Positions 312-64,000 of a stretch of 64,000 nt of DNA are shown one piece after another. Position numbers and translations under genes: made by a program. The stretch comes from Macrostomum lignano. Taxonomy: Eukaryota. How positions within the stretch are numbered: the first letter of the stretch is position 1; the number at the start of each line of letters is the position of its first letter. The notes under the pieces are model-generated. The model ran no database searches. It saw only the letters and a program-made list of their open reading frames with translations, and had not been told where the DNA came from. The stretch is from assembly GCA_002269645.1 (NCBI GenBank), contig NIVC01003945.1, positions 1-64,000 on the forward strand, read 5' to 3'.

Positions 312-770
312 TCAGACGTTGGTGCTGCCCATACTACCAACTCCCGAACAGCCAGCGGTTCCGGCTGCCGGTGCCACACTGCGCGGGCAGTTGGCCCTCC
401 CTAGCCCAACCACCTCCACGTGGGGGGGGGGGCGTGTATAACGCTCCAGAACCAGCTGGGCCACATGTGTCGCGCACGGCAGACGGATCTTCTCATCCGG
501 CGTGTTGTACAGGATCACGTGGAGCTCCCCGTATAGTCCGGGTCCACCACACCACCCTGCACAGTCAGGCCCCGATTGGCCCAACTTGAGCAGCTCGCGA
601 TCCATAGGTGCCTGGCGGCAGGATAACGCAAAGGCCTGTGCGTATATGATGGCAGTATCACAGCCCTCCACGGTCCAATTTTCACTGGTAGCCAAATCGT
701 ACGTCACTGATCCTGCCCCGTGAGCCGCCGCGGCATCGCAGCGCGCATGATCCACTAGCACGATGCTCAA
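312..770 (-). pseudogene. dut: dUTPase pseudogene (Polinton-associated)
   Basis: ORF frame has YDL near the N-terminus, GELHVILYN, VAQLVLER and a C-terminal GSMGST. Other minus frames give ILPPGTYG and IASCSSWANRGLTVQGGVVDPDYTG (motifs 2 and 3), so the gene is frameshifted. Confidence 0.85.
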
Positions 771-999
771 CGGGACTGTCGATCAGGCTCTGGGTGTAGT
801 ACTCATCGCGGCTGAGGGTTCATAGTTCATTGGATTCTTATCATCTTCTAAAATGACTCTACTACTACCCTCATAATCCTCGCCCCAACAAAAAAGCTAA
901 GCCTAGTACTAACCCCCAGTATCATCCTAGAAAACAAAAAATACATCGAGAAAGATATATTGCGAGCAAAAACATAAACAGACAAACAATAGAGAACAA

Positions 1000-3500
1000 T
1001 TGAAGTCAACCGCCAATGACCAAATAAGAGATATGAGTAGGGATCAACCCAGGCTTGCTTCGTGTCGAAAAAGCTAAGCGCTTGCTTGAGCTGCTCAAAA
1101 AGATCTTCTGTCGCCGCGAGGTAATCGTCCGCATCGTTACTGCATGCTCCAACACTCGATCCTTCCACACATTCAAAATACGTTGCGCTTCATACCTCTA
1201 ACAATCGACTTCGACACGCCCATGCACCGCAAATCTGACAGAGGGTTTTCCTTTGCATACATGTACACCATTGAATAGTTTTTCGGCCTTAGAAATGCAA
1301 ACTCCAACGGTGTACAACATGAAACTTCATCTTTTTAAACCATTAACTTCCCTTTCTACTTTTTTGTATAAACCGGATGAGAAGGTGGATAAATACTAAT
1401 GTCTAATACACCGCACTCCACCAAATCTTTACAAATCTTTACAAACAACTTATCCCGGGGACTCGTCTCCGGGTAGGCTATAATCAATGCCAAGATAAAA
1501 AAATCCGTATATCTATCAAGCACGCGGGCAGAAGCAAGTGACTGATGACATTGAATCCTTGAATAGAAAAACTCGTAGACAAATGTCTTCGCAAGGTCCA
1601 GAATAGCGCTACTAATCAGAATTGGCTTGTTTAGCAATACTCAACGAGGAGTCCAACTCACGCCCACCAGACGGTTTGTGTACAAAATCACGTCCATAAA
1701 TTCCTCTTTAGCGACGTACGTTTCTAACTTTTCGGCACTAGTACACATGCAATAGCTCAGCCTGTCTCGAACCCGCTGCAGAAACTTGCCGTGCACCGCA
1801 TTGTTTAATATTTAAAAAAATCTAGATCGAAATCGCTGGTCGCCTCAGACCGCCGACGAATATTATGTTCAATGTATTCCTGTAAAATAGGACCTTCTAC
1901 AAATTCGAGAACACGATTTACACGCGTCACACGCATGCCTAACTCGAGGTAAATACGCAATGCTCAATTATGTACAATGTACCCCTCTTTGTGTGTCACA
2001 GAGCCGATTAGCTTCCCTGTCGGAGAAGCTAATCGTTTTACGTCCTTGTATACCTCCGCATTCCTCCTTCTTGGATTAAGCTGACATTGTAGACAAACCC
2101 AATCCTGCTTCATATGCTTAGTTAGGTAAGCACTATCAGTTCTCTCATGGCCAATAGCCAGAGGTAGATCGGCAGCAGAGTCGTGCAAAAACTTCGGGTA
2201 GTACATATCGACATTCAGTAACGACCCTCGTCCATTCGCGCAATAGCTAGACAGCCAGTTCAAAAACTGACTCGACTTACTCGGATTTTCCAACTCCGCA
2301 ACATCATCAACTGGTAGATTTTCATGCACTCTACGAGGCAACCAACGATAGGCTTTATACGGCAGGGCCTGCACCATAAAACTGGAGTAAAAAGAATTAG
2401 CATTAAGGTAGGCCAAGTGAGTGCCATACGGTGCATTCTGTCACAGTCCTCTTAAATCCAGATCGTCGTCAAGGTCCAGCTGACGACGACATTCTTCTAC
2501 CATAGGATTGTTTGCCATAGTAAGATGTCGAGTGCCGAAACGAAACCCGCCTCGAATCGAAGCTTCAACCTCGGAGTACATACGAGCGTCTGAAAACAAC
2601 TCTATCGGCTCCTTCACCTTCAATAGACACGCAGCTAGACTATACATTGGCGATCCAAGAAAATGGCACACATCCAGACCGTATTCTCGTATTGCAGTCC
2701 GACGAAAACTCTCAAATGAATTGCATAGCAGTAGTGAATCCAACAGTAAATACGCGGTCACATAGCCACGCAAATTCTCACAATCAAACTCTTGCCAACT
2801 CTGCTAAGCGCGGGTGTAGTACATCTCAGAACACTCTTGCCGGGTCATTGAATCGTAAAACAAATCTCGCGGTGGCAGTTCAGTTACACTGTCCAACTTC
2901 TCATCAGAGTCCAAGTAACATTACGGAAACACTCCGTTGGAGTTTAGGAGTTTAGGAATGGAAGTTTAGGAATGGAAGGCTTGTAGTTTAGGAATGGAAC
3001 GGATCGGCCAGATCGTCCAGAGTGGATTCTGTTGGACCGGACTGCGCGCCCGCCGCCACGCCCGCCGCCGCCGCCGCCATCGCCCCGCCGCCCGCCCCCA
3101 CACGTCGTCTGTGCGTCTCTGGCGGCGACGACTGCTCGACTGTAGGTATTTTCGACGGAATATGGACAGCATGACGTCGACCTTGACAACGGTGAGGAAC
3201 TTCCAGTTACTACCGCGGGACTGGAAATTAGATAGTCCAGGGAGATGGCCTCCTCACCTGTACCTCGTACGTCTGCGTTGAGTGATGCGCTGGCCAGCTC
3301 GGGGTCGATGCGCAGGTATTTGAGGGTTGTGCATGTTCACGCTGGTGAAGGGCACCCCAGTCGCTTCGAGGACAAGTAGTTGACGCTGAGAGATCGCCGA
3401 TTCAGCATCAGAGAGTGAGCCTTGATGGTGTAGAACCTCTTGAAATGCTCGGGCAGAAACATAATATTCTCGTGGTGGTGCAATTTTTCGGTTGGGAATG
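1000..3500 (-). pseudogene. polB: Protein-primed family B DNA polymerase (Polinton/Maverick pPolB), multiply disrupted
   Basis: Ordered minus-strand motifs: NFQSRGSNW (~3200), NGVFP*CYLDS...LPPRDLFY (~2940-2850), YLLLDSLLLCNSFESFR..YGLD, EASIRGG, ANNPM, YLNANSFY..M.QALP, FFK[frameshift]NNAVHGK, LNKPI...ILDLAK, YTDFFI (degenerate YxDTDS), KDE..EF..LRPKNYS, KQALSFFDTK..FGHW. In-frame stops and frameshifts are present. Confidence 0.92.
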
Positions 3501-9818: not shown

Positions 9819-26250
<16,432 letters not shown>

Positions 26251-30287: not shown

Positions 30288-31475
30288 TCACTGCTCCAAG
30301 ACTTCAACAATTGCAGCTTTAAAATCTGACTGCAGCGAAGGGGGCAGCGGCTTCGTCTGAGCCGGCTGCAGAGGCGGCCGTTGCTGCAGCGGGGCGCTGG
30401 GCCGATGCAGTGTCCGTCCGGTGGATCGGCAGAAGGCGGCCCCGCCGCTGCCGCCCGAGTCCACGCCGCGCTGAAAGATCTGGCAGAAATTCTTGCGAAA
30501 ATTCTCCGAGCTGAAAAAGTACACGAACCCGTTGATGCCGTTGTTTAGCGAGGCGAGCATTACGAACAGCAGGCCGGCTGTGTAGGCCTGTTCGCGCATG
30601 TTGGATTTCCAACTGTACGTTGCCTCAAGAATCTCAAAGACGCACTGCGGCATGGTGAGCAGGATGTGTATGATGCACACGGGCACCAGGAGGCGATTCA
30701 CGTGCGTGCCCGTGGTGGTCGCGGCTGAAGGTCGCGTTGAAGCGCTGCTGCTTTTGTGGCAGAGCGACCTGCGCTGCTGCAGGTTCTGAGCTTGATGGTG
30801 GCATCCGCTGGATATCGACATCTGCTGCCGGCGCCGGTTGGCTCTGGCGATGATGCGGATGAGTGTCACGTTGAAGACGGTCAGCAGCAGGAAGGGCAGC
30901 AGGCTGTACAAGCTCAGCGTCGTGATGAAGAACGCGAGGCGGAATTTCTTATCGTTGCTGTCGCACCTGTCCACTCTGATACCGTCGTTGTAGCGAATAA
31001 CGCTCAGCTTGAATATGATGACCACGTTCTTGGCGAGCAGGATCAGCATTGAGCAGGACCACACCGCCAGCTTGAGTCTTCGGCGGTAGTACAGACTGGA
31101 CTTGTGCGGCCATTTGGCGAACAAGAACCGTTCAAGAGTCATCAGCACGAGTATCCAAGTAGCCGCCTCCTTGAGGAAGTAGGTGAGGAAGGTGTGCACA
31201 ACGCAGAGAAAATCGCTCTCAAGCCTGATGTCCCGCTTCGACTGGGTGGCCAGCATGATGAAGTAGCGGATGGGGTTCACCAGCAGCACGCAGGTGTCGG
31301 CCACCGCCAGCAGGGTGAAGACATCGCGGGACTTGGACATGCTTCGAGTTCGCCGCATCACAACAATGACCATTATGTTGGACAGGCAGCCTATCAGCAT
31401 CAGAGTGGGATAGTAGGCCATGCCGAACACTCGAATTTGCCACGGCAGGCTCCCATTCGCGCTCGAATTGCTCAT
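30288..31475 (-). CDS. Class A (rhodopsin-like) GPCR, probable peptide-receptor type, intronless CDS, 395 aa
   Basis: Seven hydrophobic segments, N-glycosylation sites at the N-terminus, GCLSN (TM1), LAVADT (TM2), LERF (DRY equivalent), LLTMP (TM6), LNNGINGFVY (NPxxY variant), helix 8 SENFRK. Confidence 0.95.
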   Translation of the reverse strand: MSNSSANGSLPWQIRVFGMAYYPTLMLIGCLSNIMVIVVMRRTRSMSKSRDVFTLLAVADTCVLLVNPIRYFIMLATQSKRDIRLESDFLCVVHTFLTYFLKEAATWILVLMTLERFLFAKWPHKSSLYYRRRLKLAVWSCSMLILLAKNVVIIFKLSVIRYNDGIRVDRCDSNDKKFRLAFFITTLSLYSLLPFLLLTVFNVTLIRIIARANRRRQQMSISSGCHHQAQNLQQRRSLCHKSSSASTRPSAATTTGTHVNRLLVPVCIIHILLTMPQCVFEILEATYSWKSNMREQAYTAGLLFVMLASLNNGINGFVYFFSSENFRKNFCQIFQRGVDSGGSGGAAFCRSTGRTLHRPSAPLQQRPPLQPAQTKPLPPSLQSDFKAAIVEVLEQ

Positions 31476-34334
31476 GCGAAGCTTTTTTTGCCTTAGTTAC
31501 CTGCAGTGAGAGCAATAAGGGACTATTATATCTGTCGCTGTCTCTCTCGAAAAGCGTTTGCCGAGAGGGTTTGTCTGAATTTTTGAACGAAAAAAGCGCG
31601 TTTTAAACAGTTTGGCCTCCCCCCCCGCCGGAACTCAACTGTAATCGCTCACCTCTCCGTCCCTGCAGCAGCTTCGCCAACCCCAAGCCCGGGCCAGCTC
31701 GATTGCCACTGGCTCTCCTCAGGCAAAGGAGGGACGGCGTCTAAACCATCCAGCGAATGGACGCCGTTCTCGGCGGTTAGCAGGGGCGAAAGGAAAATTG
31801 TCAGTTGCGAGGGCGTCTGCAGGGAACGGATTAGATGAGGGGCTTTGACGTTCTGCGGGGGCGGAGAGGTGGCTGCTGCGTAGGAGGAGAGCAGGGATAG
31901 AGGGAGGCAGCGGCAGGCACCTCGTGACTGTCAGCTCGAGTTGAAGCAGCAGCCGATGCTCCGCCCCTAATAATGTCAAGTCCCTCTGCCTATCCGTTTC
32001 TGCAATTTGCATATTCACCTTTCCTACAGGCGTCCCCTAGTAACGCTTTGAACTCATTCATAGTTGTGCGCGGCAAATTTCCCATAGGCTGTCAATAAAA
32101 GAAAAAAATCTTCTTAGAGCTATTGCTCCTTTGTTTTGTCACCCGAGCGGAGAAAAATAACAATTTAGGCCGGCTAAATCATGCCGCAATGATGAATGGA
32201 CCGCGCATTTTTTGTTATTCGAATGCACTGGCAAAATTTGGTCAGCTCAACTGAAAACCTAGTAATTTATGACTAGGTTAGGTCCACGGCAAGAGCACTA
32301 GCATCAATGTGAATTCAAAAAACCTTTTCCGACCTGCCCGGAGATATGCATGTCGGTTAACAGCATAACAGTTAAGGAAATGCTTCTCCGGTCAACCGCT
32401 GGCTTCTGTACCGAAGGTTGGACCTCCAATTGGGGGTTTTTGCACGCATATTTTTTCTGCTGATTACCTTGTGTCTTACTGTAGTGTCAGCTTGCGTGTC
32501 GCTGTAGCAATTTTTCCACTCGAGCGGTCTGTTTGTAAACTTTCCTCCGATGAACTTGAGGAACTTTATCTTCCCGTCTTGTTTTTGCCTGACAGCCAGA
32601 GCCTGAAATTAATGATCGTGCAGCTGAGAGGCGGGCTGGGACTCTCCGAAGCACGTAATCCGTGACTTCTGGAGCAGTTTTATTGTAACGACATTTTTGG
32701 ATATTTTGTCCGCAGTAAATCACAAGTCCACAAATCAAGAATCTTGAATGTTGAAAACACAGAAAAATATGCAATATTTTAAAGCTATTGAGACCGTGCC
32801 TCTGTAGATACAAATTTGACTCCAACGAGTATTAGACAGCTCAATGCCCAGACCACGAGGCCAACACAAGGGCGCACCTATCACTGCGCCTGCACCTGCT
32901 GCAGCAGAACGTGCTTCTTTTGACGCTACAGGGGCAGCGCTATGATCTACCTGGCAAACTGCAGTCGCAGGAGGGCTTTGAAATAAGACAAAAGTCAGCC
33001 AGCAGCCAGCAAGGAGGCAGAGACATGCCCATTTTTAACCCTCGGCACGCAAAGTCATATGGATGCGTACACAGGTACTCTTTCATACAGAAGGGACGCA
33101 TGCGCACTGTGAGCTTTGGGGGCTGGCACTATTGGCGTCAATCGCTCGGGAAGCCTTAGGCAAGGAATCGAACCCAAGGTCTGTATAAGTACAATTGCCG
33201 GGCACGCTTTCACTCTACTTCTCTGCCCCCGCGTCATCTGGCTGATGACTCACGAGGTGATCCCGAATGAATTTTCGGCAGGAGCAGGTCCGATCCTTCT
33301 ACGTCTTTGCGTGGGAATCGGAACTGGTTTTTTGGCCGGTCACGTGATTTTGCTTCGCTTTTAGCGAGCCAGCTGGAGCAAATATAGCTGCTTTGCCTTT
33401 TCTAAAGGGCTTCTCAAATTATTCAAGAAGCCGCAATAACAAAAATGCAGCCCTGTTTCATCCGATAGACTGCTACTACAAGCTTTCACTCAAATTAGGT
33501 TACTTTCTCTGAATATATTAAAAATAGCTAACTCTGCGCTGAAATCCTAAATTTCCTCCGTTGAAAGTGTAAGACGTCTTCTCCGCTCGCTGTATTCATT
33601 AGTCTATGGTCCGAGTTACATTTGAAGTTGATTCGCCGAGAATTTCTCGTTTCTGAAAAACTCGGAATTTGCCTTAACTTGCATTGATGCTGCTATGCAT
33701 ATGCAAATGCTATGCAGCTATCGAAAGCGTTGTCAAAAATCTGTTCTCAACTGTGCCAACTGCCGACACGACACACAACACGACAGTCTTCGGCGAACAT
33801 GCGACTAAGGCTGGTGGAAGGAGGCGTAAGCAAAGCGATAGCCGCTCAAACGATAGAACGAATTAGCAAAAAGGCGGCAGAACACACATTTACGTACATG
33901 TAATTCGGAAAATAATACATGTATGTCAGCTGTACTCTAGTCCGAGCGTGCCATAGACGGCTGGCAGAGCGCCTCGGCTACATGGCGCGCGCGCGCCAAT
34001 GCATGATTAAATTGAGTGCTCGCAGGATCAACTAGGCTGCAAAATTCTATAATGAGAATGGAGTGCCAAGGTAGTGTGGCTCTGAATGCTTTTAGTTGAA
34101 TTTTCAATCTCTACTAAAGAGGGACTCTGATAAAGAGTGCAGTAAATGCGTATTCAATAATTCAGTCCAGAATTGGCAAGTGAAGCGAATTGACTGCGCG
34201 CTTTGATGGATGGAAAATCACAAGATATTTTTCCATTTTACCAATTAACAAGGATGAATACGGAATTAAGTGCATTAGAGGACATGCAGGGTTCAATGCT
34301 GAGGTCATAGAGGTAACGAGGAAGCAATCTGGCG

Positions 34335-52914: not shown

Positions 52915-54761
52915 TCACCCCGCATTTCTATGCTTCCGACCGTGCAGTGCCAGGTGGTCGGATCTGGAGAAGCCGCGGCCGCAGATGCCACAGCGGAACG
53001 GCCGCTCGCCAGTGTGGCGCCGCCGGTGCCTCGTCAGCTCGTCGGAGCGGGCGAAGCGCCAGCGGCAGCCGGGCCAGGCGCAGGCGTACGGCTTTTCCCC
53101 GGTGTGGGTCCTCTCGTGCGACCGCAGGTGCGACAGTTTGGCGTAGGCCCGGCCGCAGCCCGGCGCGAAGCAGACGTGCCGAGCTGTCGAACAAGTCGAA
53201 GACGCAGCGGATGCTTCGCCGCTGCTTTTCTCACTGCGCCGACGCCAGCGCTGACGCCCGGGACTGCGCAGATGCGGGGGCGAGGAGACGGGAGAAGTCG
53301 GAGTTGGTAGCAGCGAAGGTGGCGGCAGCGGTGGCGGTGGTGGAGGATGCATTCCAGAGTTGCACGCGGTCGCGGAGTGCTCCAGGATGAAGTCGAGGTC
53401 CAGCAGGGACTCCCAGACCGGCCAGCAGCAGTCGTCGAGGCTGGCGCAGGGCTGCGGCTGCAGTTCCAGCGGCGGTGGCGACGGTAGCGGCGGCAGCGAC
53501 AGTGACGCCTGCGAGCTGGCTGCGACTGTCTGAAGGGCAAAGTGGCATGCAATCGGTGCAGATCCTTGGATGTTCTTACCAGACTGACTCAATGAGAGAA
53601 ATAGACCCAAAGCAGAGCAAACTAGATCAGACAAGACTCATAGTATCAAAACAAACTTGAATGATGAGACCAGACTCAAGATATCTGAAAAGACGCGAAG
53701 GATCAGACCAGACTCAAAGGATCAGACCAGATCAGACCAGACTCAAAGGTTCAGACCAGACCCAAAGGATCAGGCCAGACTCAAAGGTTCAGACCAGACT
53801 CAAAGGATCAGGCCAGACTCAAAGGTTCAGACCAGACTCAAAGGTTCAGACCAGACTCAAAGGATCAGACCAGACTCAAAGGTTCAGACCAGACTCAAAG
53901 GTTCAGACCAGACTCAAAGGATCAGACCAGATCAGACCAGACTCAAAGGATCAGACCAGACTCAAAGGATCAGACCAGACTCAAAGGTTCAGACCAGACT
54001 CAAAGGATCAGACCAGACTCAAAGGATCAGACCAGACTCAAAGGTTCAGACCAGACTCAAAGGATCAGACCAGACTCAAAGGATCAGACCAGACTCAAAG
54101 GTTCAGACCAGACTCAAAGGATCAGACCAGATCAGACCAGACTCAAAGGTTCAGACCAGACTCAAAGGATCAGACCAGACTCAAAGGTTCAGACCAGACT
54201 CAAAGGTTCAGACCAGACTCAAAGGATCAGACCAGACTCAAAGGTTCAGACCAGACTCAAAGGATCAGACCAGACTCAAAGGATCAGACCAGACTCAAAG
54301 GTTCAGACCAGACTCAAAGGATCAGACCAGATCAGACCAGACTCAAAGGTTCAGACCAGACTCAAAGGATCAGACCAGACTCAAAGGTTCAGACCAGACT
54401 CAAAGGTTCAGACCAGACTCAAAGGATCAGACCAGACTCAAAGGTTCAGACCAGACTCAAAGGATCAGACCAGACTCAAAGTATCAGACCAGATCAGACC
54501 AGACTCAAAGGATCAGACCAGACTCAAAGGATCAGACCAGACTCAAAGGTTCAGACCAGACTCAAAGGTTCAGACCAGACTCAAAGGATCAGACCAGACT
54601 CAAAGTATCAGACCAGATCAGACCAGACTCAGGCCGAAAGACAACGCTAATTAATGTTTAACCTCAGATCGCTGAGTTGCATTCCTTCCGGTGTCCACTT
54701 CCGGGAGCTGCAGGGGGCCGTCCGCAAACAGGCTGTCTCTGCAGTAGTCGTGGTAGATCAT
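52915..54761 (-). CDS. Kruppel-like factor (KLF1/2/4-like), 2 exons, about 237 aa
   Basis: Three C2H2 fingers with HTGEKPY and [10 protein letters not shown]; [10 protein letters not shown] activation motif. Predicted exons 54761-54663 ([12 protein letters not shown]..., weak GTTAAA donor) and 53529-52915, phase 0. Confidence 0.93.
53700..54631 (+). repeat. 19-bp minisatellite with periodic 10-bp inserts (KLF intron)
   Basis: tcagaccagactcaaagg(a/t). Confidence 0.97.
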
Positions 54762-56676: not shown

Positions 56677-56912
56677 TCAGGCATCCAGCAGGTTAATAAG
56701 CGGCAGCTTGTTGAAGTCGCATCCGTGATCTCGGCTGTCGTAGAATTTCACCAGCTCGGAGTCGCACTCCGGCTGGGGGTGTCCGGCGTCCAGGACGGCC
56801 AGGCACTCGTAGCTTTGCGGCGCTGCAGTTCGGGGCTGGCCGATGGCTGCGATGGTCTTTTGCACCAACTGGTGCTGGTCGACCTGGCGGGGCGGCGGTC
56901 GGGTTGAATATC
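56677..56912 (-). CDS. Probable terminal exon of an unidentified host gene
   Basis: GC3-rich open frame GYSTRPPPRQVDQHQLVQKTIAAIG...LPLINLLDA*, candidate acceptor ccccaag| at 56913, satellite-filled upstream region like other introns in this window. Confidence 0.5.
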
Positions 56913-56921
56913 CTTGGGGTT

Positions 56922-57495
56922 GCTTTGTTTGGGCATCTATGACTGCTTTGATAGGGTGTCTATGGCTGCTTTGATAGGGTGTCTATGACTGCTTTGATTG
57001 GGTGTCCTTGGCTGCATTGATTGGGTGTCTATGGCTGCTTTGATTGGGTGTCCTTGGCTGCTTTGATTGGGTGTCCTTGGCTGCATTGATTGGGTGTCTA
57101 TGGCTGCTTTGATTGGGTGTCCTTGGCTGCTTTGATTGGGTGTCTATGGCTGCTTTGATTGGGTGTTTTGACTGCTTTTTTTAAATGTCCCTGGCTGCTT
57201 TGATTGGGTGTCCTTAGCTGCTTTGTTTGGGTGTCTATGGCTGCTTTGATTGGGCGTCTATGGCTGCTTTGATTGGGTGTCCTTGGCTGCTTTGATTGGG
57301 TGTCCTTGGCTGCTTTGATTTGATTGGGTGTCCTTGGCTGCTTTGATTGGGTGTCCTTAGCTGCTTTGATTGGGTGTCCTTGGCTGCTTTGATAAGGTGT
57401 CCTTGGCTGCTTTGATAAGGTGTCCTTGGCTGCTTTGATTGGGTGTCTATGGCTGTTTTGTTTGGGTGTCCTTAGCTGCTTTGTTTGGGCATCTA
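56922..57495 (+). repeat. 23-bp minisatellite
   Basis: ggctgctttgattgggtgtcctt. Confidence 0.96.
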
Positions 57496-57534
57496 AGTAG
57501 AAGGCATGAGGGGGCTTTTGGGACAAAATTTTTC

Positions 57535-57835
57535 ACATCCTCCATAATCCCATTAAATCCATCCATATTATCCCTGACAGAATCAGAAAAAAAGGGGGGT
57601 CGCACTCGCTCACAAAACATCCTCCATAATCCACCTAAATCCATCCATATTATCCCTGACAGAATCAGAAAAAAGGGGGGTCGCACTCGCTCACAAAACG
57701 TCCTCCATAATCCACCTAAATCCATCCATATTATCCCTGACAGAATCATGAAAAAGGGGAGGGGCCGCACTTGCTCCGAAAACTTCGAACATAATCCTAT
57801 TAAATCCATCCATATTATCCCTGACAGAATCAGAG
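57535..57835 (+). repeat. ~82-bp tandem repeat x4 near the left end of the viral element
   Basis: atccatattatccctgacagaatc at 57561, 57643, 57724 and 57808. Confidence 0.92.
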
Positions 57836-58039
57836 CAGGTGTCCACTGATACCCGTTATGCTCACTGACACAGACATCATCCACTGACATCCACCCATAG
57901 CATCTTCGAAACAATCAGAAAATAATCTGCATTCTTATCCCCACATTCAATTCGCAACATGAAACCAGATCCCTAAAACTTTAAATCATCAGCGCAGGGT
58001 CCTTACCCTTTGAAAAAAAGTAATAAATTCTCAATAAAA

Positions 58040-58279
58040 ATGTTTCCAGTTGTCTCTCCAGGTTCTTATTACAAAGCGCACGAGCCTAATTACAAGAGTA
58101 AGTACCGATGCAAACTTGAATGCAGCGAATACATGAGAAAATATTGGCCCGACGTTCAAATCAATGTCCCTAATATTAATCTAGCTCTCCAAAGACATTG
58201 GTTTCATAAGTATGGAGTAACCTATGTAAAAGATTATGACAGCTACTATAACTTTGCAGAAATCATTAGGCAATTGTGA
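58040..58279 (+). CDS. Viral hypothetical protein, 79 aa, Tyr/Trp-rich
   Basis: ATG at 58040 in TAAAAATG context; tail-to-tail with the minor capsid gene (4-bp gap). Confidence 0.6.
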   Translation: MFPVVSPGSYYKAHEPNYKSKYRCKLECSEYMRKYWPDVQINVPNINLALQRHWFHKYGVTYVKDYDSYYNFAEIIRQL

Positions 58280-58283
58280 TTTC

Positions 58284-59147
58284 TCACATTCTCTCAATGA
58301 TTAACGTCAATACAAACTCTTCCCCATTAAAATCAACGCCCATCCCATCTTCAGTCTCAAACTGTAGCACAATCTCGTGAATCTCCTTATTACTCAATAC
58401 AACTCTTTTCACTGGATTTGGTTTCTCTACCACCATCTGTCCTCCAGCTACAGAGTTGGAGATGTTGTACAAAATATTCGTTCGCTTTCCCTTAAATACC
58501 CAATCAAGACTGAGATTAGTTCTGATTAGAATATTCAAACCCTTTACAATGTCTGCTATATTGGGTGCTAAGAACAAACCGCGTACACTTTCCCGGGCCA
58601 TGATAACAGCCCCCGTCGCTTGAGTGACAGTCCGCGCTGTGGATTCTGCCTTATAAACTTTCTTCACGAATCCCAATTCCCTATACCAAGTGTCATCTTT
58701 AAACTCAACCTCCGCATCTTTGTGAACTTGCATGACCACTCTCATTACAGTGAGATCATAGGTTAGTTTAACAGGGAACAGTTTCTTCTCTGGCTTACTC
58801 ATATCAGGTGTCTCAAAATGGCCTCTTTTAGTAAAGACGTTTTCTAGAAAGTAATTGTAGGTATCCACACTTTGCGTGCTCACAGGGAATACCACAGGTT
58901 CTGCTGCTGCACCTTTCCATTTGTAATAAAACTTATTATTTGCTGCCGTCACATTGGGAACGTTTGACCAACCAGTGAAGTCGTTAAGATAGACATGGTA
59001 ATTAGCACCTGGATCCAGGCGAATCGCCTGCTCTAATTTTTGAATAAATATCCCGTTTGAGTCATTAATTCGCCCAGTTATTGTAATAGGAATGCTCTCC
59101 TTGGAGTGCGAAATAATATTATTTAGTCTTTCAGCAATCGCTTCCAT
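58284..59147 (-). CDS. Minor capsid protein (penton, single jelly roll), 287 aa
   Basis: C-terminal IHEIVLQFETEDGMGVDFNGEEFVLTLII typical of Polinton/PLV pentons; directly downstream of the MCP gene; ATG at 59147 (the track starts at GTG 59156). Confidence 0.8.
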   Translation of the reverse strand: MEAIAERLNNIISHSKESIPITITGRINDSNGIFIQKLEQAIRLDPGANYHVYLNDFTGWSNVPNVTAANNKFYYKWKGAAAEPVVFPVSTQSVDTYNYFLENVFTKRGHFETPDMSKPEKKLFPVKLTYDLTVMRVVMQVHKDAEVEFKDDTWYRELGFVKKVYKAESTARTVTQATGAVIMARESVRGLFLAPNIADIVKGLNILIRTNLSLDWVFKGKRTNILYNISNSVAGGQMVVEKPNPVKRVVLSNKEIHEIVLQFETEDGMGVDFNGEEFVLTLIIERM

Positions 59148-59168
59148 TTTTTTCACATAAAAAAATAT

Positions 59169-60455
59169 TTAAACTTTACTGGATGAATTGTTGATCATGT
59201 TAAGCTTCACCTTCCTCTCAAATGCATAGATAATGTACAAGTCCACAGGTGTTGCGACAGTCCTCTCAATGTTAGTCACGATATTCACAGGGCTGTTATC
59301 AGTAGGCATTTGTCTGGCAGACACATCAGCGCCAAACATTGGATATAGAGTTCCATATTGAAGAGCAGTGATAGCAATTCCATTGTTCTCTTTCACAGCC
59401 AAGTCGACCAACTCGCTATAAAATTTGCTAATCTTGTTCTGACTGAAATCTCCATTTTGTGGCAGTGCAGGGTAAAGATTATCACTGATTTCATGCTGAA
59501 TGGACCGCACGTCACCATGCATGTAGCGTATAATGCTATTTGGGTTTCTCATATTAATAATGATATACCTTGGATTGCTGCATGATCCCTCTTTAATGCA
59601 GATGTTTGTTCTAGTTTCGTTTCGCTCATCTAGACACATGTAGGCTGTGTATGCAACATCAATGTCCTTCTCTATTGCCTTAAGATAGTCTGCTTTTAGT
59701 GCAGTCTTTGGCTCAATGACTTCCAAATACAGCTCGATTCCGGTTAGCTTCACCTCCATCCTTGTGTGGTCCGCCCCAGTCCACAACACTCTACTGCGAT
59801 CATCTCTAGTCATCTTAAAAGTGTAGCTAAAGTTACTAGTCAGTCGATTAAATGTACTACAAAATCCACTCATGAATCTCAGTGGTACAAATACATCAAC
59901 AGACCGATACAGCGGGTTTTTAGCAGCATCATCAGCACCTTGCAATGCATAGTTGTATCTCTTCTTCCTCTTTTTATAGCCACTGTCATTGGTGTCTCCT
60001 TCTTTTTCATCTGCGATAAAACCCGCACCACTTCCCAACTGAATAAAATCAGGATTCTCGATCAAACAATGAGCGTCATAGACAATTCCAAAGTTGGCGA
60101 TTCGCTCCAACTCAGTGCTCCCATTCGATACACTAAACTCCTTGAACATGTACGCCCAAAAGTTACTGATCAGAGCCACATCCGCATCATGCTTGTCAAC
60201 GTTAGCACGAGCCGCATCCGCACCACCCTTTGTCTTGAATTGAAATGTCATATGGAAGCCGCTCTTAAGACTGTGCACACTAACCAAAGACGAACATCCA
60301 TTGTATGTAAATGTCAGTGTTTGGCCAGGACCAAGATTAGTTTCATTCTGATTTTCCTGACTGGGAACTCTTACCTGAGTCACTTTGATTGTGCTATCAT
60401 CACTCAAAATAGGCTTGTTAATTTTGTAGAAAACTGGTGTCAGTGGGTCGTTCAT
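59169..60455 (-). CDS. Major capsid protein (double jelly roll, Polinton PY/hexon-like), 428 aa
   Basis: DDSTI, N.WAYMF, VPLRFMSGFCSTF, PRYIII, YP...NGDFSQNK.SKFY, YGTLYPMFGADVS match Polinton/adintovirus MCP conserved blocks; uninterrupted ORF. Confidence 0.9.
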   Translation of the reverse strand: MNDPLTPVFYKINKPILSDDSTIKVTQVRVPSQENQNETNLGPGQTLTFTYNGCSSLVSVHSLKSGFHMTFQFKTKGGADAARANVDKHDADVALISNFWAYMFKEFSVSNGSTELERIANFGIVYDAHCLIENPDFIQLGSGAGFIADEKEGDTNDSGYKKRKKRYNYALQGADDAAKNPLYRSVDVFVPLRFMSGFCSTFNRLTSNFSYTFKMTRDDRSRVLWTGADHTRMEVKLTGIELYLEVIEPKTALKADYLKAIEKDIDVAYTAYMCLDERNETRTNICIKEGSCSNPRYIIINMRNPNSIIRYMHGDVRSIQHEISDNLYPALPQNGDFSQNKISKFYSELVDLAVKENNGIAITALQYGTLYPMFGADVSARQMPTDNSPVNIVTNIERTVATPVDLYIIYAFERKVKLNMINNSSSKV

Positions 60456-60485
60456 TTTTTAACTAAAAATAAAATAAAATAAGAA

Positions 60486-61130
60486 ATGAAGCGAAAAAGT
60501 ACACAGCAGATATCTGAATTGGAGAAGCTAGCACAAGCAGAGAAACGAGTTACCGGGCTAATAAATAAGGAGCAACAATCCTACAATGAGTTTGTCCAAG
60601 CAGCCACCGAATTTCACAAACCCGGATACACAGAAGCGAAGAAAAACCTCGACACTGTGAAGGAAGCAGTTGATGATATTCAAGAGAGCCACTTGCAAAA
60701 CACATTGGGTAAAATCCCATCTTCACCAGGACAACCACAGGCTCAGGAACCAGGACAACCGGTGCAGATGAAAGTGACGGATAACTTTTTTGGCCCCGTA
60801 GTGGATGATGGAAAATATATTTTTGGAATTAGCGCCTGGCGAAAAAATATTACCGGGGAACCGGCGGATTACAACATTGAAGTGACAAAGGAAAACATTT
60901 CAATCAATAAAGGCGCAAAAACTAAAAGAATCCAGTTCACTCAAACTTTACTTGATTACATGACTAAAAATCTAGAGAATACGTCTAAAAAGCAGCTCAA
61001 AAATTACAAAGATCTTGTTACCTTTGCTCTCGATAGGGATATAGATATGCTCAAGAACAACGGTGTTTTGAAAATTTTACATGAAAACGGGATTGTCTTG
61101 AACAGATTTAAAAAAATACAAATACTTTAA
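60486..61130 (+). CDS. Conserved Polinton protein (PZ-like), N-terminal part
   Basis: FTQTLLDYMTKNLE...QLKNYKDLV resembles the GTxGLWELL..K.P...DL..YK.IL block; probably continuous with 61144-61671 via a +1 shift. Confidence 0.6.
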   Translation: MKRKSTQQISELEKLAQAEKRVTGLINKEQQSYNEFVQAATEFHKPGYTEAKKNLDTVKEAVDDIQESHLQNTLGKIPSSPGQPQAQEPGQPVQMKVTDNFFGPVVDDGKYIFGISAWRKNITGEPADYNIEVTKENISINKGAKTKRIQFTQTLLDYMTKNLENTSKKQLKNYKDLVTFALDRDIDMLKNNGVLKILHENGIVLNRFKKIQIL

Positions 61131-61143
61131 ACAATGGTTTGGT

Positions 61144-61671
61144 TTGCCGGATCAGGAAGAGGTCATAAGACAACAACCACAACAACAACAGCAACAACAG
61201 CAACCGCCACAACAGCAGCAACATTTCACAGAAGAACAAGTACTCAGGCAACTGGAAAATGCAGATCCGACTCAAGTAGCTAAATATAATAATGATCACC
61301 CAACAGACTGGCAACACTTAGAACAACACTCTCCAGATCGAATGAACAGAATCAAGCAAAGAGTTTTCACACCTCAACAAAGACAGGCGCCACATGACAG
61401 TTCCATCTCTGAAAGTGAGCAGTCTTTTGGATCACCTCCCCAGCAGCCACAAGCCCAACCAACTCCACAACCCCAAGACCAACCACCCAAATCTGGAAAA
61501 GGAATAGCTGAAATCTACAAGCGAGTAGCGGTTCTTCTAGGAGCGGCAAAGACCGGAATGAAAGACGAGAATAGAAAAGAATTTGTCAACATCCTGGACA
61601 AAATGCTTGAGAGAAAATACATCGATAAGAGGGCGAGAGAGCTTCTGCTTTCGCGGTTCAACAAAAAATAA
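61144..61671 (+). CDS. Conserved Polinton protein (PZ-like), C-terminal part with Gln-rich linker
   Basis: GKGIAEIYKRVAVLLGAAKTGMKDENRKEFVNILDKMLE resembles the RL.LL.AS..AGN...NEI..IL..L motif; no ATG of its own (TTG start). Confidence 0.65.
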   Translation: MPDQEEVIRQQPQQQQQQQQPPQQQQHFTEEQVLRQLENADPTQVAKYNNDHPTDWQHLEQHSPDRMNRIKQRVFTPQQRQAPHDSSISESEQSFGSPPQQPQAQPTPQPQDQPPKSGKGIAEIYKRVAVLLGAAKTGMKDENRKEFVNILDKMLERKYIDKRARELLLSRFNKK

Positions 61672-61687
61672 CTTATTTCAAGTAAAA

Positions 61688-62077
61688 ATGCCACTTATTT
61701 TCGAAAAAGACATTGACAAATACTATGACAAAGAGGAACTTAATCTTATTAAACGCGGATCTGGACTTTTCCCTGCAGGCCACTATCCAAGAAAAGAGCG
61801 CTCCGGGAATGGCCTTGCCGATTTGATCGCTCAGGGGGCTAAGATTTTTAAGGTCATTGGAGAGAACAAAGAGAACATCAAGAACGTTGCCGAAGCGGCT
61901 GGCAGTGTAGCCACAGCAGCCAAAAAGATAAAGGATACTGTAACACCTAAACAAGAGATTCAACCTCCACTGGCCCCGCTGGCTCCGCTGGCCCCAAATC
62001 CAGACATTGTGGACCCTGCAGTCTATGAGAAGATGAGAGCTAGCATTAAAAAAGGAAGTGGTTTCAAATTTGACTAA
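61688..62077 (+). CDS. Probable virion core/membrane-active protein, 129 aa
   Basis: KRGSGLF, RSGNGLADLIAQGAKIFK (amphipathic), PPLAPLAPLAP, KKGSGFKFD; ATG at 61688 in AAAAATG context. Confidence 0.6.
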   Translation: MPLIFEKDIDKYYDKEELNLIKRGSGLFPAGHYPRKERSGNGLADLIAQGAKIFKVIGENKENIKNVAEAAGSVATAAKKIKDTVTPKQEIQPPLAPLAPLAPNPDIVDPAVYEKMRASIKKGSGFKFD

Positions 62078-62117
62078 AGGGTACTTTCCGAGGGTACAAG
62101 AAATGTAAAGGTACAAG

Positions 62118-62238
62118 ACTAGTCCCAAAATGACATACCTAAGTCCCAAAATGACACATCTAAGTCCCAAAATAACACATCTAAGTCCCAAAATGACACA
62201 TCTAAGTCCCAAAATGACACATCTAAGTCCCAAAATTG
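62118..62238 (+). repeat. 21-bp tandem repeat x~5.5 between convergent viral genes
   Basis: agtcccaaaatgacacatcta at a 21-bp period. Confidence 0.95.
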
Positions 62239-62325
62239 ACAACTCTTTGGTGGTGGTTAGATTTGTTTTACGTTTGATTGTTTCGTCTGCAGTTGGCGCC
62301 AGCAGGTCTCTTCGAATCTACCTAT

Positions 62326-63132
62326 TTATTTGTCTATGCGCTCCATTCTACACTTGATCTCAAACAAACCGGTTGGCTCACGAAATTTTGGGTTAGTGGT
62401 CAAACTGGTTGGCTCACGAAATTCGTGGTCAGTGGTCAAGTCGGTTGGATCACTTATTTCCCTTGTGGTCTGTGGTGCCTCTTCAACAGTATCAATATCA
62501 GGAAGATTGTGTACTCCCTCAAGACGACTGATTCTTCTCAACGATTTCTGCCATTCGGTAAAAATTAAATCTAAATAGACTTTAATTGCATCAAGTCTTT
62601 CTTTAATTCTATCATGCAACGATGTTGACTGAGTCATGAACTCTTCTAAATTCCTCACTTTACCTGTGTTGGTTGCGACGTTTTCTTTAATTCTATCATG
62701 CAACACTGTTGACTGGTTCATGAACTCTTCTAAATTATTTACTTTAGCTGTGTTTGTGAAAACTCCTCCTTCAAGAATACGCATCCGTCTATCAGTGGAA
62801 TTTCCCAGAAGATTAACTGATGATCTCAAGCCGTTGATTAGCGAGACTATCGAAGTTATTTCTGACCTTAGTTCATTAGTTGCGTTTGACAACGGCACAA
62901 AAAGCTCATCACTTTCAAACTTCTGCCTAGCTACTTTAAGCCTGAGATCTTCCATGTTTATCTGTAGCTGGTGCATGGAGCGCTCTAGTAGGGCTTTCAG
63001 TCTGTTTTTATTCAGTTTGATCTCTGGGATCTCTTCGTCGCTGTTGATATATCGCCTGTCAAGGATGGATATTTGAGCTGATGTAAGAGCGCTGTTGCCA
63101 GAAATGGATTCACCTGCAAAATTAATAGACAT
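62326..63132 (-). CDS. Viral coiled-coil protein (possible fibre/stalk), 268 aa
   Basis: Heptad-rich; internal ~28-aa duplication (TNTAKVNNLEEFMNQSTVLHDRIKE / TNTGKVRNLEEFMTQSTSLHDRIKE); C-terminal 12-aa repeats. Confidence 0.7.
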   Translation of the reverse strand: MSINFAGESISGNSALTSAQISILDRRYINSDEEIPEIKLNKNRLKALLERSMHQLQINMEDLRLKVARQKFESDELFVPLSNATNELRSEITSIVSLINGLRSSVNLLGNSTDRRMRILEGGVFTNTAKVNNLEEFMNQSTVLHDRIKENVATNTGKVRNLEEFMTQSTSLHDRIKERLDAIKVYLDLIFTEWQKSLRRISRLEGVHNLPDIDTVEEAPQTTREISDPTDLTTDHEFREPTSLTTNPKFREPTGLFEIKCRMERIDK

Positions 63133-63148
63133 CTTTTAATAGCAAATT

Positions 63149-63949
63149 TTAAATTACAGTTCTTTTTTCTTTGCTGATAATCTCAAACTGGTAAGGCTGA
63201 TTCCACTTGTCATAGCAAAGATTAACGAATTCCTCCTGTGAAATCTTTCTGTTTGAGTTTTTTGTTGGATTTATGAAATAGGCAGGCGCAATGAACTCAT
63301 TGTAAAATCTTTTTAACCTGTCCTGTGGAATGGTTGGAAACAGGAGAATCAGATTGCAGTTCCCGCAAATTGTTTTGTTCGGGAGCTCGAACCAGTTCTG
63401 TGCAATGTAAATTACATTACAATTGTTATGTCGCCCTCTTGTAAAATAGTTTTCTATCTGCTTCTGTGGGCCTGTCATACAATCATCAAAGACGATCAAA
63501 TGCTTTCTCCCTTTTTCTAGCTCATCTGGATGGGGTAGAAGTTTGGTCTTTGGATCCACCTGCGGATCTCCATAGGAGAACACTTTAATGTTCTGCCATT
63601 TTTCATTGTCTTTGAGGTGCTTTGCATATTCGGCAGCTACAATTTCTGGGTTACTGGGAAGGCTCATTTGGTTATTAAAACATTGAATAATGTCCTCTTT
63701 GTTCAGTTTGTTTTGCAATCCAGAAATCAGCATTCTATACTCATCTTGATACAGTGTGGGAGAGTAGATGTGCAGAGTGTCATAGTCGATGAAGCCAGGT
63801 CTAAGAAGCATGTTAAAGACTCTGAATGTTTTACCTGAACCTGATGAACCAACAACAATGCATCTGAAGTGACTCGGGATTGACTCATGATGAGAAAACT
63901 TAATCTGATTACGCGTCCAGTGAGGATTGAAGTCCTTTGAAAAGTCCAT
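63149..63949 (-). CDS. A32/FtsK-like DNA-packaging ATPase, 266 aa
   Basis: Walker A GSSGSGKT, Walker B LIVFDD, TRGRHNNCNVIYIAQNWFELP signature of Polinton/NCLDV packaging ATPases. Confidence 0.95.
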   Translation of the reverse strand: MDFSKDFNPHWTRNQIKFSHHESIPSHFRCIVVGSSGSGKTFRVFNMLLRPGFIDYDTLHIYSPTLYQDEYRMLISGLQNKLNKEDIIQCFNNQMSLPSNPEIVAAEYAKHLKDNEKWQNIKVFSYGDPQVDPKTKLLPHPDELEKGRKHLIVFDDCMTGPQKQIENYFTRGRHNNCNVIYIAQNWFELPNKTICGNCNLILLFPTIPQDRLKRFYNEFIAPAYFINPTKNSNRKISQEEFVNLCYDKWNQPYQFEIISKEKRTVI

Positions 63950-64000
63950 TTTTTCTATGATGAAAAAAAATTTTTTTTTAATAATAAAACATTTAGAAGA

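Follow-up and report, generated by a model that had tools for sequence, protein, structure and literature searches.

The last 6.5 kb of the window (the whole stretch of 64,000 nucleotides analyzed here) carry capsid and packaging genes, which raises the question of what kind of element lies there and how it took its present form. The first-pass annotation took this block, within an animal genome, for the nearly intact capsid and packaging genes of a Polinton-like (adintovirus-type) virus, and the class assignment (Polinton/Maverick) holds. All seven of its open frames (428, 287, 266, 268, 214, 109, and 129 aa) are real, and the block is AT-rich as described, with 40.4% GC compared with 47.8% in the rest of the window. 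Its first base, 57496, is a genuine element terminus bordered by a 6-bp target-site duplication; the left copy lies at 57490..57495 (+), and the identical hexamer is found at both element ends in contigs C276 and C1652. The second terminal inverted repeat (TIR) that was sought beyond the window is there as well, since C276 and C1652 have a full terminus at the far end. Past the right edge, where PolB, protease, and integrase genes were expected, the left arm recurs in inverted orientation instead.

The element starting at 57496 is an 11.2-kb palindrome in which two inverted arms of about 4.75 kb flank a 1.76-kb centre. The left arm (57496..62236) opens with the family terminus, followed by 81-85-bp subterminal repeats. 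The inverted right arm begins at 63997..64000, and continues to 68440, where the window's contig (C3945) ends; C276 and C1652 contain it in full. The arms are 99.6-99.9% identical. Each arm holds a TIR and the penton, MCP, PZ-like, and core-like genes, and the centre holds the packaging ATPase and a coiled-coil gene. A tblastn search for pPolB, integrase, and protease gave no match in the element copies of the three contigs, and PLA2X is also absent. Therefore, the palindromic copy cannot replicate itself, integrate itself, or mature virions, and it is defective and non-autonomous. Between its TIRs an autonomous Maverick encodes pPolB, integrase, and protease, and all its core frames are uninterrupted; neither is true of this copy. 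The description as nearly intact has to be dropped, as the PZ-like gene is split, the ATPase has a substitution, and the copy is a palindrome. Alone it is not a virus, and at most it could be a source of MCP and penton.

The 428-aa product (59169..60455, -) is, on its predicted fold, a double jelly-roll major capsid protein. The structure model has a pLDDT of 90.2 and a pTM of 0.89, and Foldseek matched it to Sputnik, a virophage (E 5.5e-21), and to the PBCV-1 capsid (E 1.7e-18), as the first-pass annotation had anticipated. MELD virus and Adintovirus models were within the top 8 matches in BFVD. The match to PF21738 of Pfam was below the cut-off, and a sequence search against the PDB gave no match. 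The adjoining 287-aa frame (58284..59147, -) is likely the minor capsid protein, or penton, judging from its position beside the MCP and a weak lead in Atlas (feature score 0.98 to viral clusters). Its single-sequence fold model has a pLDDT of 34.9, and profile searches of PDB and Pfam with a 14-sequence alignment found no relevant match.

In the unique centre, the 266-aa frame (63149..63949, -) passes the Pox_A32 (PF04665) cut-off with 26.7 bits against 22.8 and is an A32/FtsK-like ATPase, in agreement with its earlier labeling as a packaging ATPase. The palindromic copy has a non-conservative substitution at an ATPase position where 47 of the 50 frameshift-free family copies agree. The coiled-coil frame next to it (268 aa, 62326..63132, -) differs in length from copy to copy. 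The PZ-like gene (60486..61671, +), tentatively so labeled from a motif, consists in the left arm of a 214-aa piece (60486-61130) and a 109-aa piece (61342-61671). It is in two pieces in all six arm copies (132-227 aa); elsewhere in the family, 56 of 95 sampled starts open a single frame of at least 380 aa. No informative match to this protein came from Pfam or Atlas. The basic 129-aa frame (61688..62077, +) likely encodes a core precursor, a function presumed from its three GxG motifs, and Pfam and Atlas gave the label no support. A 79-aa frame adjoining the TIR (58040..58279, +) is also present in a full-length copy and has no Pfam match.

The functions that the palindrome lacks are present in its family. 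We found 346 exact termini genome-wide, and the family comprises about 170 or more young sibling copies. All 98 MCP matches scored are 97-100% identical and 95 have no internal stop, in keeping with a young family. Full-length siblings, 15-16.5 kb in size, encode pPolB, rve integrase, adenain, and PLA2X; in the copy C142, PF03175, PF00665, and PF00770 are above cut-off and PLA2X matches PF08398 (E 6e-14). The first-pass annotation had named a lack of further Polinton genes downstream as evidence against its reading; that lack is real for the palindromic copy and does not extend to the family. One pPolB piece has a weak PF03175 match (E 1e-6) and an endonuclease VII-like insert, and no OTU domain was matched in the pPolB pieces scanned. 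pPolB is mostly interrupted: of the 24 paired copies with its motifs, 23 have no pPolB frame as long as 900 aa. Single-base indels of the assembly (2-11 between near-identical arms) raise the frameshift counts, as do, for the right-half genes, indels in the reference copy itself. A perfect 6-bp target duplication flanks 20 of 28 paired loci, and three more have one mismatch. The inverted ends have a median length of 456 nt (0-1214, n=27), compared with 4.75 kb in the palindromic copy, and TIR pairs of other copies are often unlike (85-100% over 240 nt). The pN/pS values were 0.09 for MCP, 0.16 for penton, 0.11 for core-like, and 0.14 for PLA2X in 27 regions picked by terminus (an earlier set, picked by MCP score, was biased). 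At the level of codons, these values indicate purifying selection on the capsid and entry genes of the family.

The palindromic copy lies inside a host gene, within an intron that is conserved. The last coding exon of this small gene, of an unnamed family, lies at 56677..56883 (-), and the element is in the intron upstream of it. The exon has an AG acceptor, and its 68 codons are in frame with two exons past the far end of the element. Paralogs of 38-50% identity have both exons in order with unchanged splice positions. The intron part at 56884..57495 (-), mostly a 23-bp satellite, was the insertion target. In the empty allele (G000:C280) the intron is uninterrupted and 930 nt long, compared with about 12.2 kb in occupied alleles, and no large loss of host DNA was seen between the two. 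A suspected likeness of the host gene to Gadd45/L7Ae proteins was unsupported by searches, in which eS12 matched at an E of about 0.3 only.

The left arm ends in a 21-bp minisatellite (62121..62236), and at 62232..62236 this is joined, through 5 nt of microhomology, to an A-tract behind the coiled-coil gene. A 20-mer spanning the junction occurs at three places genome-wide, every one of them this locus. An MCP 17-mer has 64 exact matches, and these form close inverted pairs in C3945, C276, and C1652 alone. These two results rule out a mobilised mini-family of palindromes. Over 3.9 kb there are 0-5 substitutions between the arms, against at least 50 to the closest other copy among 39 long matches, so both were made from one template.

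The current model of Maverick replication, protein-primed strand displacement on free linear DNA, has been deduced from gene content. Our preferred explanation, to which we give a probability of about 0.5, is one fold-back template switch in the element's own protein-primed replication, followed by insertion through the integrase of a sibling. Synthesis begun at the capsid end would halt about 6.5 kb in. The stalled strand would re-anneal through 5 nt to the minisatellite of the opposite-sense strand and be copied back to the end. The product would be linear, with the same origin at each end, and full-length siblings could copy and insert it in trans. After integration, the copy would decay in place, as in the split PZ-like gene and the ATPase substitution, with no amplification. 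The shortness of the junction homology, just 5 nt, and the full terminus at both ends within one shared 6-bp duplication support this origin, as does a family that integrates in the Maverick manner and carries pPolB, rve, adenain, and PLA2X. Also in its favor are the common template of the two arms, the likeness of the two ends over their first 240 nt, the absence of a large host-DNA loss relative to the empty allele, and the palindromic DNAs of phi29 described below. The palindrome was found at one of 28 paired loci and in none of 60 MCP-anchored stretches; therefore no free or amplified form was seen, a point against the fold-back origin.

The same duplication would also outlast a rearrangement in place, which counts against the fold-back origin as well. 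A full-length copy could have inserted first, and host replication or repair could then have switched template twice, the second time by way of the homologous TIRs, and put the left arm, inverted, in place of the copy's right 9.6 kb. Such a route would likewise create a microhomology junction and arms nearly identical to each other while leaving the duplication intact, it agrees with a single locus, and the right end in C1652 does have one additional 81-bp unit. However, it requires two switches, and the sole other allele seen is the empty one. The first 240 nt of the two ends are 100% alike in C276 and 99.2% in C1652, and apart from unit count and single-base indels there are no letters specific to the right end, although TIR pairs of other copies often differ. 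We consider this route unlikely.

The minisatellite is also a place where other insertions have landed. C1098 has two nested insertions inside it, 4-5 nt from the junction spot, in the order of a left arm and then a reversed element; the closeness of the two spots speaks against a fold-back origin. In another alternative, a sibling may have landed in reverse orientation inside a resident copy's minisatellite; TIR-TIR recombination and a microhomology deletion would then have taken out the remainder, and arm-to-arm conversion would have made the arms alike. Some private letters are common to both arms of one contig and absent in another, which hints at conversion, but polishing may explain the pattern. 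Three or four steps would be needed, unrelated copies are 98.5% alike at best, and such nesting was seen at just one sampled locus. This reading is doubtful.

If the palindrome were an artefact, formed from a high-copy repeat in library preparation or assembly, this would explain why C3945 and C276 terminate at or close to the element, and why flank divergence (1.4-3.5%) exceeds arm divergence (0.1%). The orientation and alleles of the centre also vary among contigs: in C1652 it is flipped and has 14 substitutions relative to C3945 and C276, when the arms of the same contigs differ by 4-9. The fold-back model does not account for this flipped centre. No bridging of the junction was found among the 32 read-contig pieces listed of about 7,300, which fits an artefact and weighs against the fold-back origin. 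However, the junction is common to three contigs, and C276 and C1652 span both ends with correct, differing host flanks and the target duplication. A join of 5 nt is not a jump between repeats, and reads folded back at an adapter would show mirrored flanks and no 1.76-kb spacer. We regard an artefact as very improbable. A contaminant is also unlikely, as the copies lie at many chromosomal sites with target duplications and contigs from four runs of four studies have matches in 29-30 of 30 bins; one of the runs (X1) may stem from the sample used for the assembly.

Protein-primed replication of phi29 reportedly gave palindromic by-products in a paper of 1997. According to PMC2175359, phi29 replication is able to give palindromic DNAs. 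As here, such by-products have one genome end duplicated in inverted form, with two identical origins. The phi29 case concerns phage DNA, whereas the present molecule sits in an animal chromosome, and the role of the element's polymerase is inferred. If the fold-back explanation holds, the integrated molecule is a genomic footprint of protein-primed replication, because two identical origins and a clean duplication are the by-product that the model predicts.

By the gene and end features described in PMC4028283 and PMC8097293, the copy resembles Polintons/Mavericks in its double jelly-roll MCP, neighboring penton candidate, packaging ATPase, TIRs, and 6-bp duplication. It differs from them in lacking pPolB, integrase, and protease and in its 4.75-kb inverted ends. 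The family as a whole has several defining Polinton/Maverick features (double jelly-roll MCP, A32/FtsK-like ATPase, pPolB with rve and adenain, TIRs with 6-bp duplications). Its terminus begins AGTAGA, which is neither of the two vertebrate Maverick end motifs in the excerpt of PMC8097293. The hexon-like MCP, adenain, FtsK-like ATPase, integrase, and PLA2X of the family are shared with adintoviruses as excerpted from Starrett et al. (PMC8502044). As to Alpha or Beta class, PLA2X is a trait of the Alpha module, but pPolB has the weak PF03175 match and the endonuclease VII-like insert, with no OTU in the scanned pieces. The capsid module as such is ordinary.

The palindromic copy in its intron resembles Mu killer and the composite-insertion silencers of Ac in maize, which are partial inverted duplications with two copies of one terminus. 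In the excerpts of PMC3440606 and bioRxiv 2020.01.07.897926, they also lack most of the autonomous element and lie inside the transcript of a flanking gene. Those are plant cut-and-paste transposons with siRNA and silencing shown, whereas this is an endogenous dsDNA virus of an animal. The structural hallmark of Mu killer, one element end inversely duplicated inside a host transcription unit, is present here. By analogy, the locus might be a "Maverick killer", an intron-captured, defective copy-back genome of an endogenous dsDNA virus. Its 4.75-kb hairpin, made by host read-through, would be a source of small RNAs that target capsid genes and termini in the sibling proviruses, of which there are about 170 or more. 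We hold this role to be quite improbable. A possible cleavage signal, AATAAA, lies near 62330. Since occupied and empty alleles both exist, the locus offers an observational test of how an animal might silence proviruses of this DNA family. The family has more than 170 young copies, its capsid and entry genes are under purifying selection, and it is a good place to seek Maverick particles.

The element that starts at position 57496 and runs past the right edge of the window belongs to a young Maverick (Polinton) family, from which it derives as a defective palindrome. The first-pass annotation had read it as a nearly intact capsid and packaging module and expected PolB, protease and integrase beyond the right edge; instead, the contig continues there with the left part repeated in inverted orientation. 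The locus is complete in two further contigs, C276 (11,248 bp) and C1652 (11,329 bp), in each of which copies of one hexamer flank the two ends, and contig C280 carries the empty allele of the insertion site. A 4.75-kb arm (terminus, penton, MCP, PZ-like, core-like and minisatellite) is followed by a 1.76-kb unique centre with the coiled-coil and ATPase genes, and then by the inverted arm. Relative to a full-length copy, the palindrome comprises the left 6.3-6.5 kb plus the left 4.7 kb reversed, and tblastn found no pPolB, integrase, protease or PLA2X within it.

The capsid module itself was called correctly: all seven ORFs are present at the annotated coordinates, and the block is AT-rich (GC 40.4% vs 47.8% in the remainder of the window). 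The "PZ-like" and "core-like" names are presumptive, having come from motifs, and database searches gave no support for either label. The model of the 428-aa MCP (59169-60455, minus strand), folded with a 53-sequence alignment (pLDDT 90.2, pTM 0.89), matches solved viral major capsid proteins, the best being those of Sputnik, PBCV-1, mavirus and an iridovirus (E 5.5e-21 to 3.7e-18); in a viral structure library, the top hits are models of virophage, MELD virus and adintovirus proteins. By sequence, its nearest matches are unnamed proteins from contigs (identity 69-77% and 43-44%), and identity drops to about 31% or less among full-length relatives, close fragments aside. The 266-aa ATPase (63149-63949, minus strand) passes the Pox_A32 cut-off. 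The 287-aa protein (58284-59147, minus strand) is likely the penton because of its position, as pentons adjoin the MCP or stand one gene away (PMC4028283). Judged from its frames, the palindromic copy is decaying: each of the six arms has a split PZ-like gene, penton and MCP frames are interrupted in four and one of them, respectively (assembly indels may account for some of these), and its only ATPase is substituted at a site common to 47 of 50 frameshift-free copies. C1652 differs again in the same codon.

For the parent family, an MCP search of the genome gave 661 candidates; all 98 scored were 97-100% identical, and 95 had no internal stop. The 22-nt terminus occurs exactly 346 times, indicating about 170 or more elements, haplotype copies included. 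Host genes have about three contig copies each genome-wide, so copy counts take in haplotypes or extra chromosome sets. We examined 28 loci with paired termini. Many are 15-16.5 kb long, some shorter ones being deletion forms and some longer ones holding foreign stretches; the 6-bp target duplication is perfect in 20 and has one mismatch in three. In C142, a full-length sibling that also carries frameshifts, there are matches to PF03175 pPolB, rve integrase, adenain and PLA2. The pPolB frames are broken in nearly all paired copies, and single-base assembly indels occur often, also where two arms are nearly identical.

Internally deleted short copies lie at G000:C544:473028-476600, G000:C33:768924-777592, G000:C744:17689-30155 and G000:C105:570682-574517 (G000 is the assembly); the C544 copy keeps only penton and MCP between its TIRs, with a perfect 6-bp duplication. 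TIR limits are fluid: the C716 TIR reaches about 1.2 kb, the left end in C1824 carries a reversed right-subterminal piece, and G000:C819:84865-103867 has a penton fragment close to its right end. The region from PZ-like to coiled coil (about 3.6-6.5 kb of the reference) is a mosaic with 76-99% identity among copies, compared with 93-99% for MCP and pPolB, a pattern that suggests recombination between siblings.

In 27 regions picked by terminus, pN/pS was 0.09 for MCP (23 copies; 192 synonymous and 63 non-synonymous variants), 0.16 for penton, 0.07 for ATPase, 0.11 for core-like, 0.14 for PLA2X, 0.13 for integrase, 0.15 for the pPolB C-part and 0.32 for protease. Singleton variants are nearer neutral (0.29 for MCP, 0.82 for penton). 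As these are counts over related copies, they show that selection acted on the family in the past and do not show present-day virions. Fish Mavericks have been discussed along similar lines (PMC8097293).

Over 3.9 kb, 0-5 substitutions separate the two arms, vs 50 for the nearest other sampled copy; therefore, both came from a single template or were homogenised. A strand-displacing polymerase could switch once from its template to the opposite-sense strand, which would generate the palindrome in one step and leave two identical origins, and integration would need a sibling's integrase. We infer these steps with a probability of about one half. For phi29, PMC2175359 describes palindromic DNAs as possible during protein-primed replication. 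Rearrangement in place is a less likely origin of the palindrome. Compared with C3945 (the contig of the window) and C276, C1652 has a flipped centre with 14 differing sites, at several of which the letters are alleles known from other copies; among the locus contigs, divergence is 1.4-3.5% in the left flanks vs 0.1% in the arms. This pattern could come from true isomerisation together with conversion, or else from an assembly that mixes haplotypes. Nested insertion plus deletions, about as likely as rearrangement in place, is favoured by a nested composite at G000:C1098:18129-48742, in which two element termini lie inside the internal 21-bp minisatellite at the same hexamer position. A 9-nt motif of this minisatellite recurs in the subterminal TIR and is possibly an integrase- or origin-binding site. 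At the palindrome's novel junction, the minisatellite joins an A-tract that lies about 90 nt past the coiled-coil gene, with five shared nucleotides. The junction-spanning 20-mer occurs three times in the genome, always at this locus. An artefact is unlikely, although no read contig bridges the junction among the 32 pieces listed of about 7,300. Further fold-backs were absent from the 27 other paired loci and from 60 MCP-anchored stretches.

The palindrome sits in a 23-bp satellite within the final intron of a host gene that has three exons and lies on the minus strand. This intron is 930 nt in the empty allele vs about 12.2 kb in the occupied alleles, and is real, since paralogs of the flanking exons (38-50% identity) keep order and splice positions. 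Database searches put no name to this gene family. The exon 1 5' extension has a stop in the empty allele (G000:C280, about 90920) and is open in both occupied alleles; exon 2 has a 1-nt loss near C1652 40300, which may be an assembly error. A full host pre-mRNA would include the two arms, which could pair to form a 4.75-kb stem. Mu killer shows this arrangement: part of the element is duplicated in inverted orientation, one terminus is present twice, and transcription reads through from a flanking gene (PMC3440606). Silencing of Ac/Ds by Ac composite insertions is described as working likewise (bioRxiv 2020.01.07.897926). A working silencer is nevertheless improbable here; ten AATAAA hexamers precede the second arm on the host-sense strand and speak against it, one of them near 62330 just before the junction.

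Polintons that encode MCP, penton, ATPase and protease are a known class, and so are copies lacking genes (PMC4028283); the adintovirus Alpha and Beta classes and PLA2X follow PMC8502044, and the pPolB classes PMC10748475. The listings of our literature search, which covered few subscription papers, included none on a palindromic Polinton or on Mavericks from the flatworm genus presumed as host. The supplementary data of PMC8502044 and PMC10748475 may include this family.

Elsewhere in the window, 1007-2878 (minus strand) holds the decayed remains of a pPolB from another, older Polinton (27-45% identity in pieces to the family pPolB), adjoined by an ORF (312-782, minus strand) that is dUTPase-like by eye. 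Frames at 30288-31496 (minus strand) and 23580-24979 (plus strand) are, also by eye, GPCR-like and cadherin-like, respectively. A three-finger C2H2 (KLF-like) host gene (52915-53548, minus strand) lies 4 kb from the element, and an otopetrin gene lies past its far end (L012:72-836). A 1-kb insertion at G000:C1652:25424-26408, which C3945 and C280 lack, holds a 242-aa ORF with a weak QRICH1 domain match.
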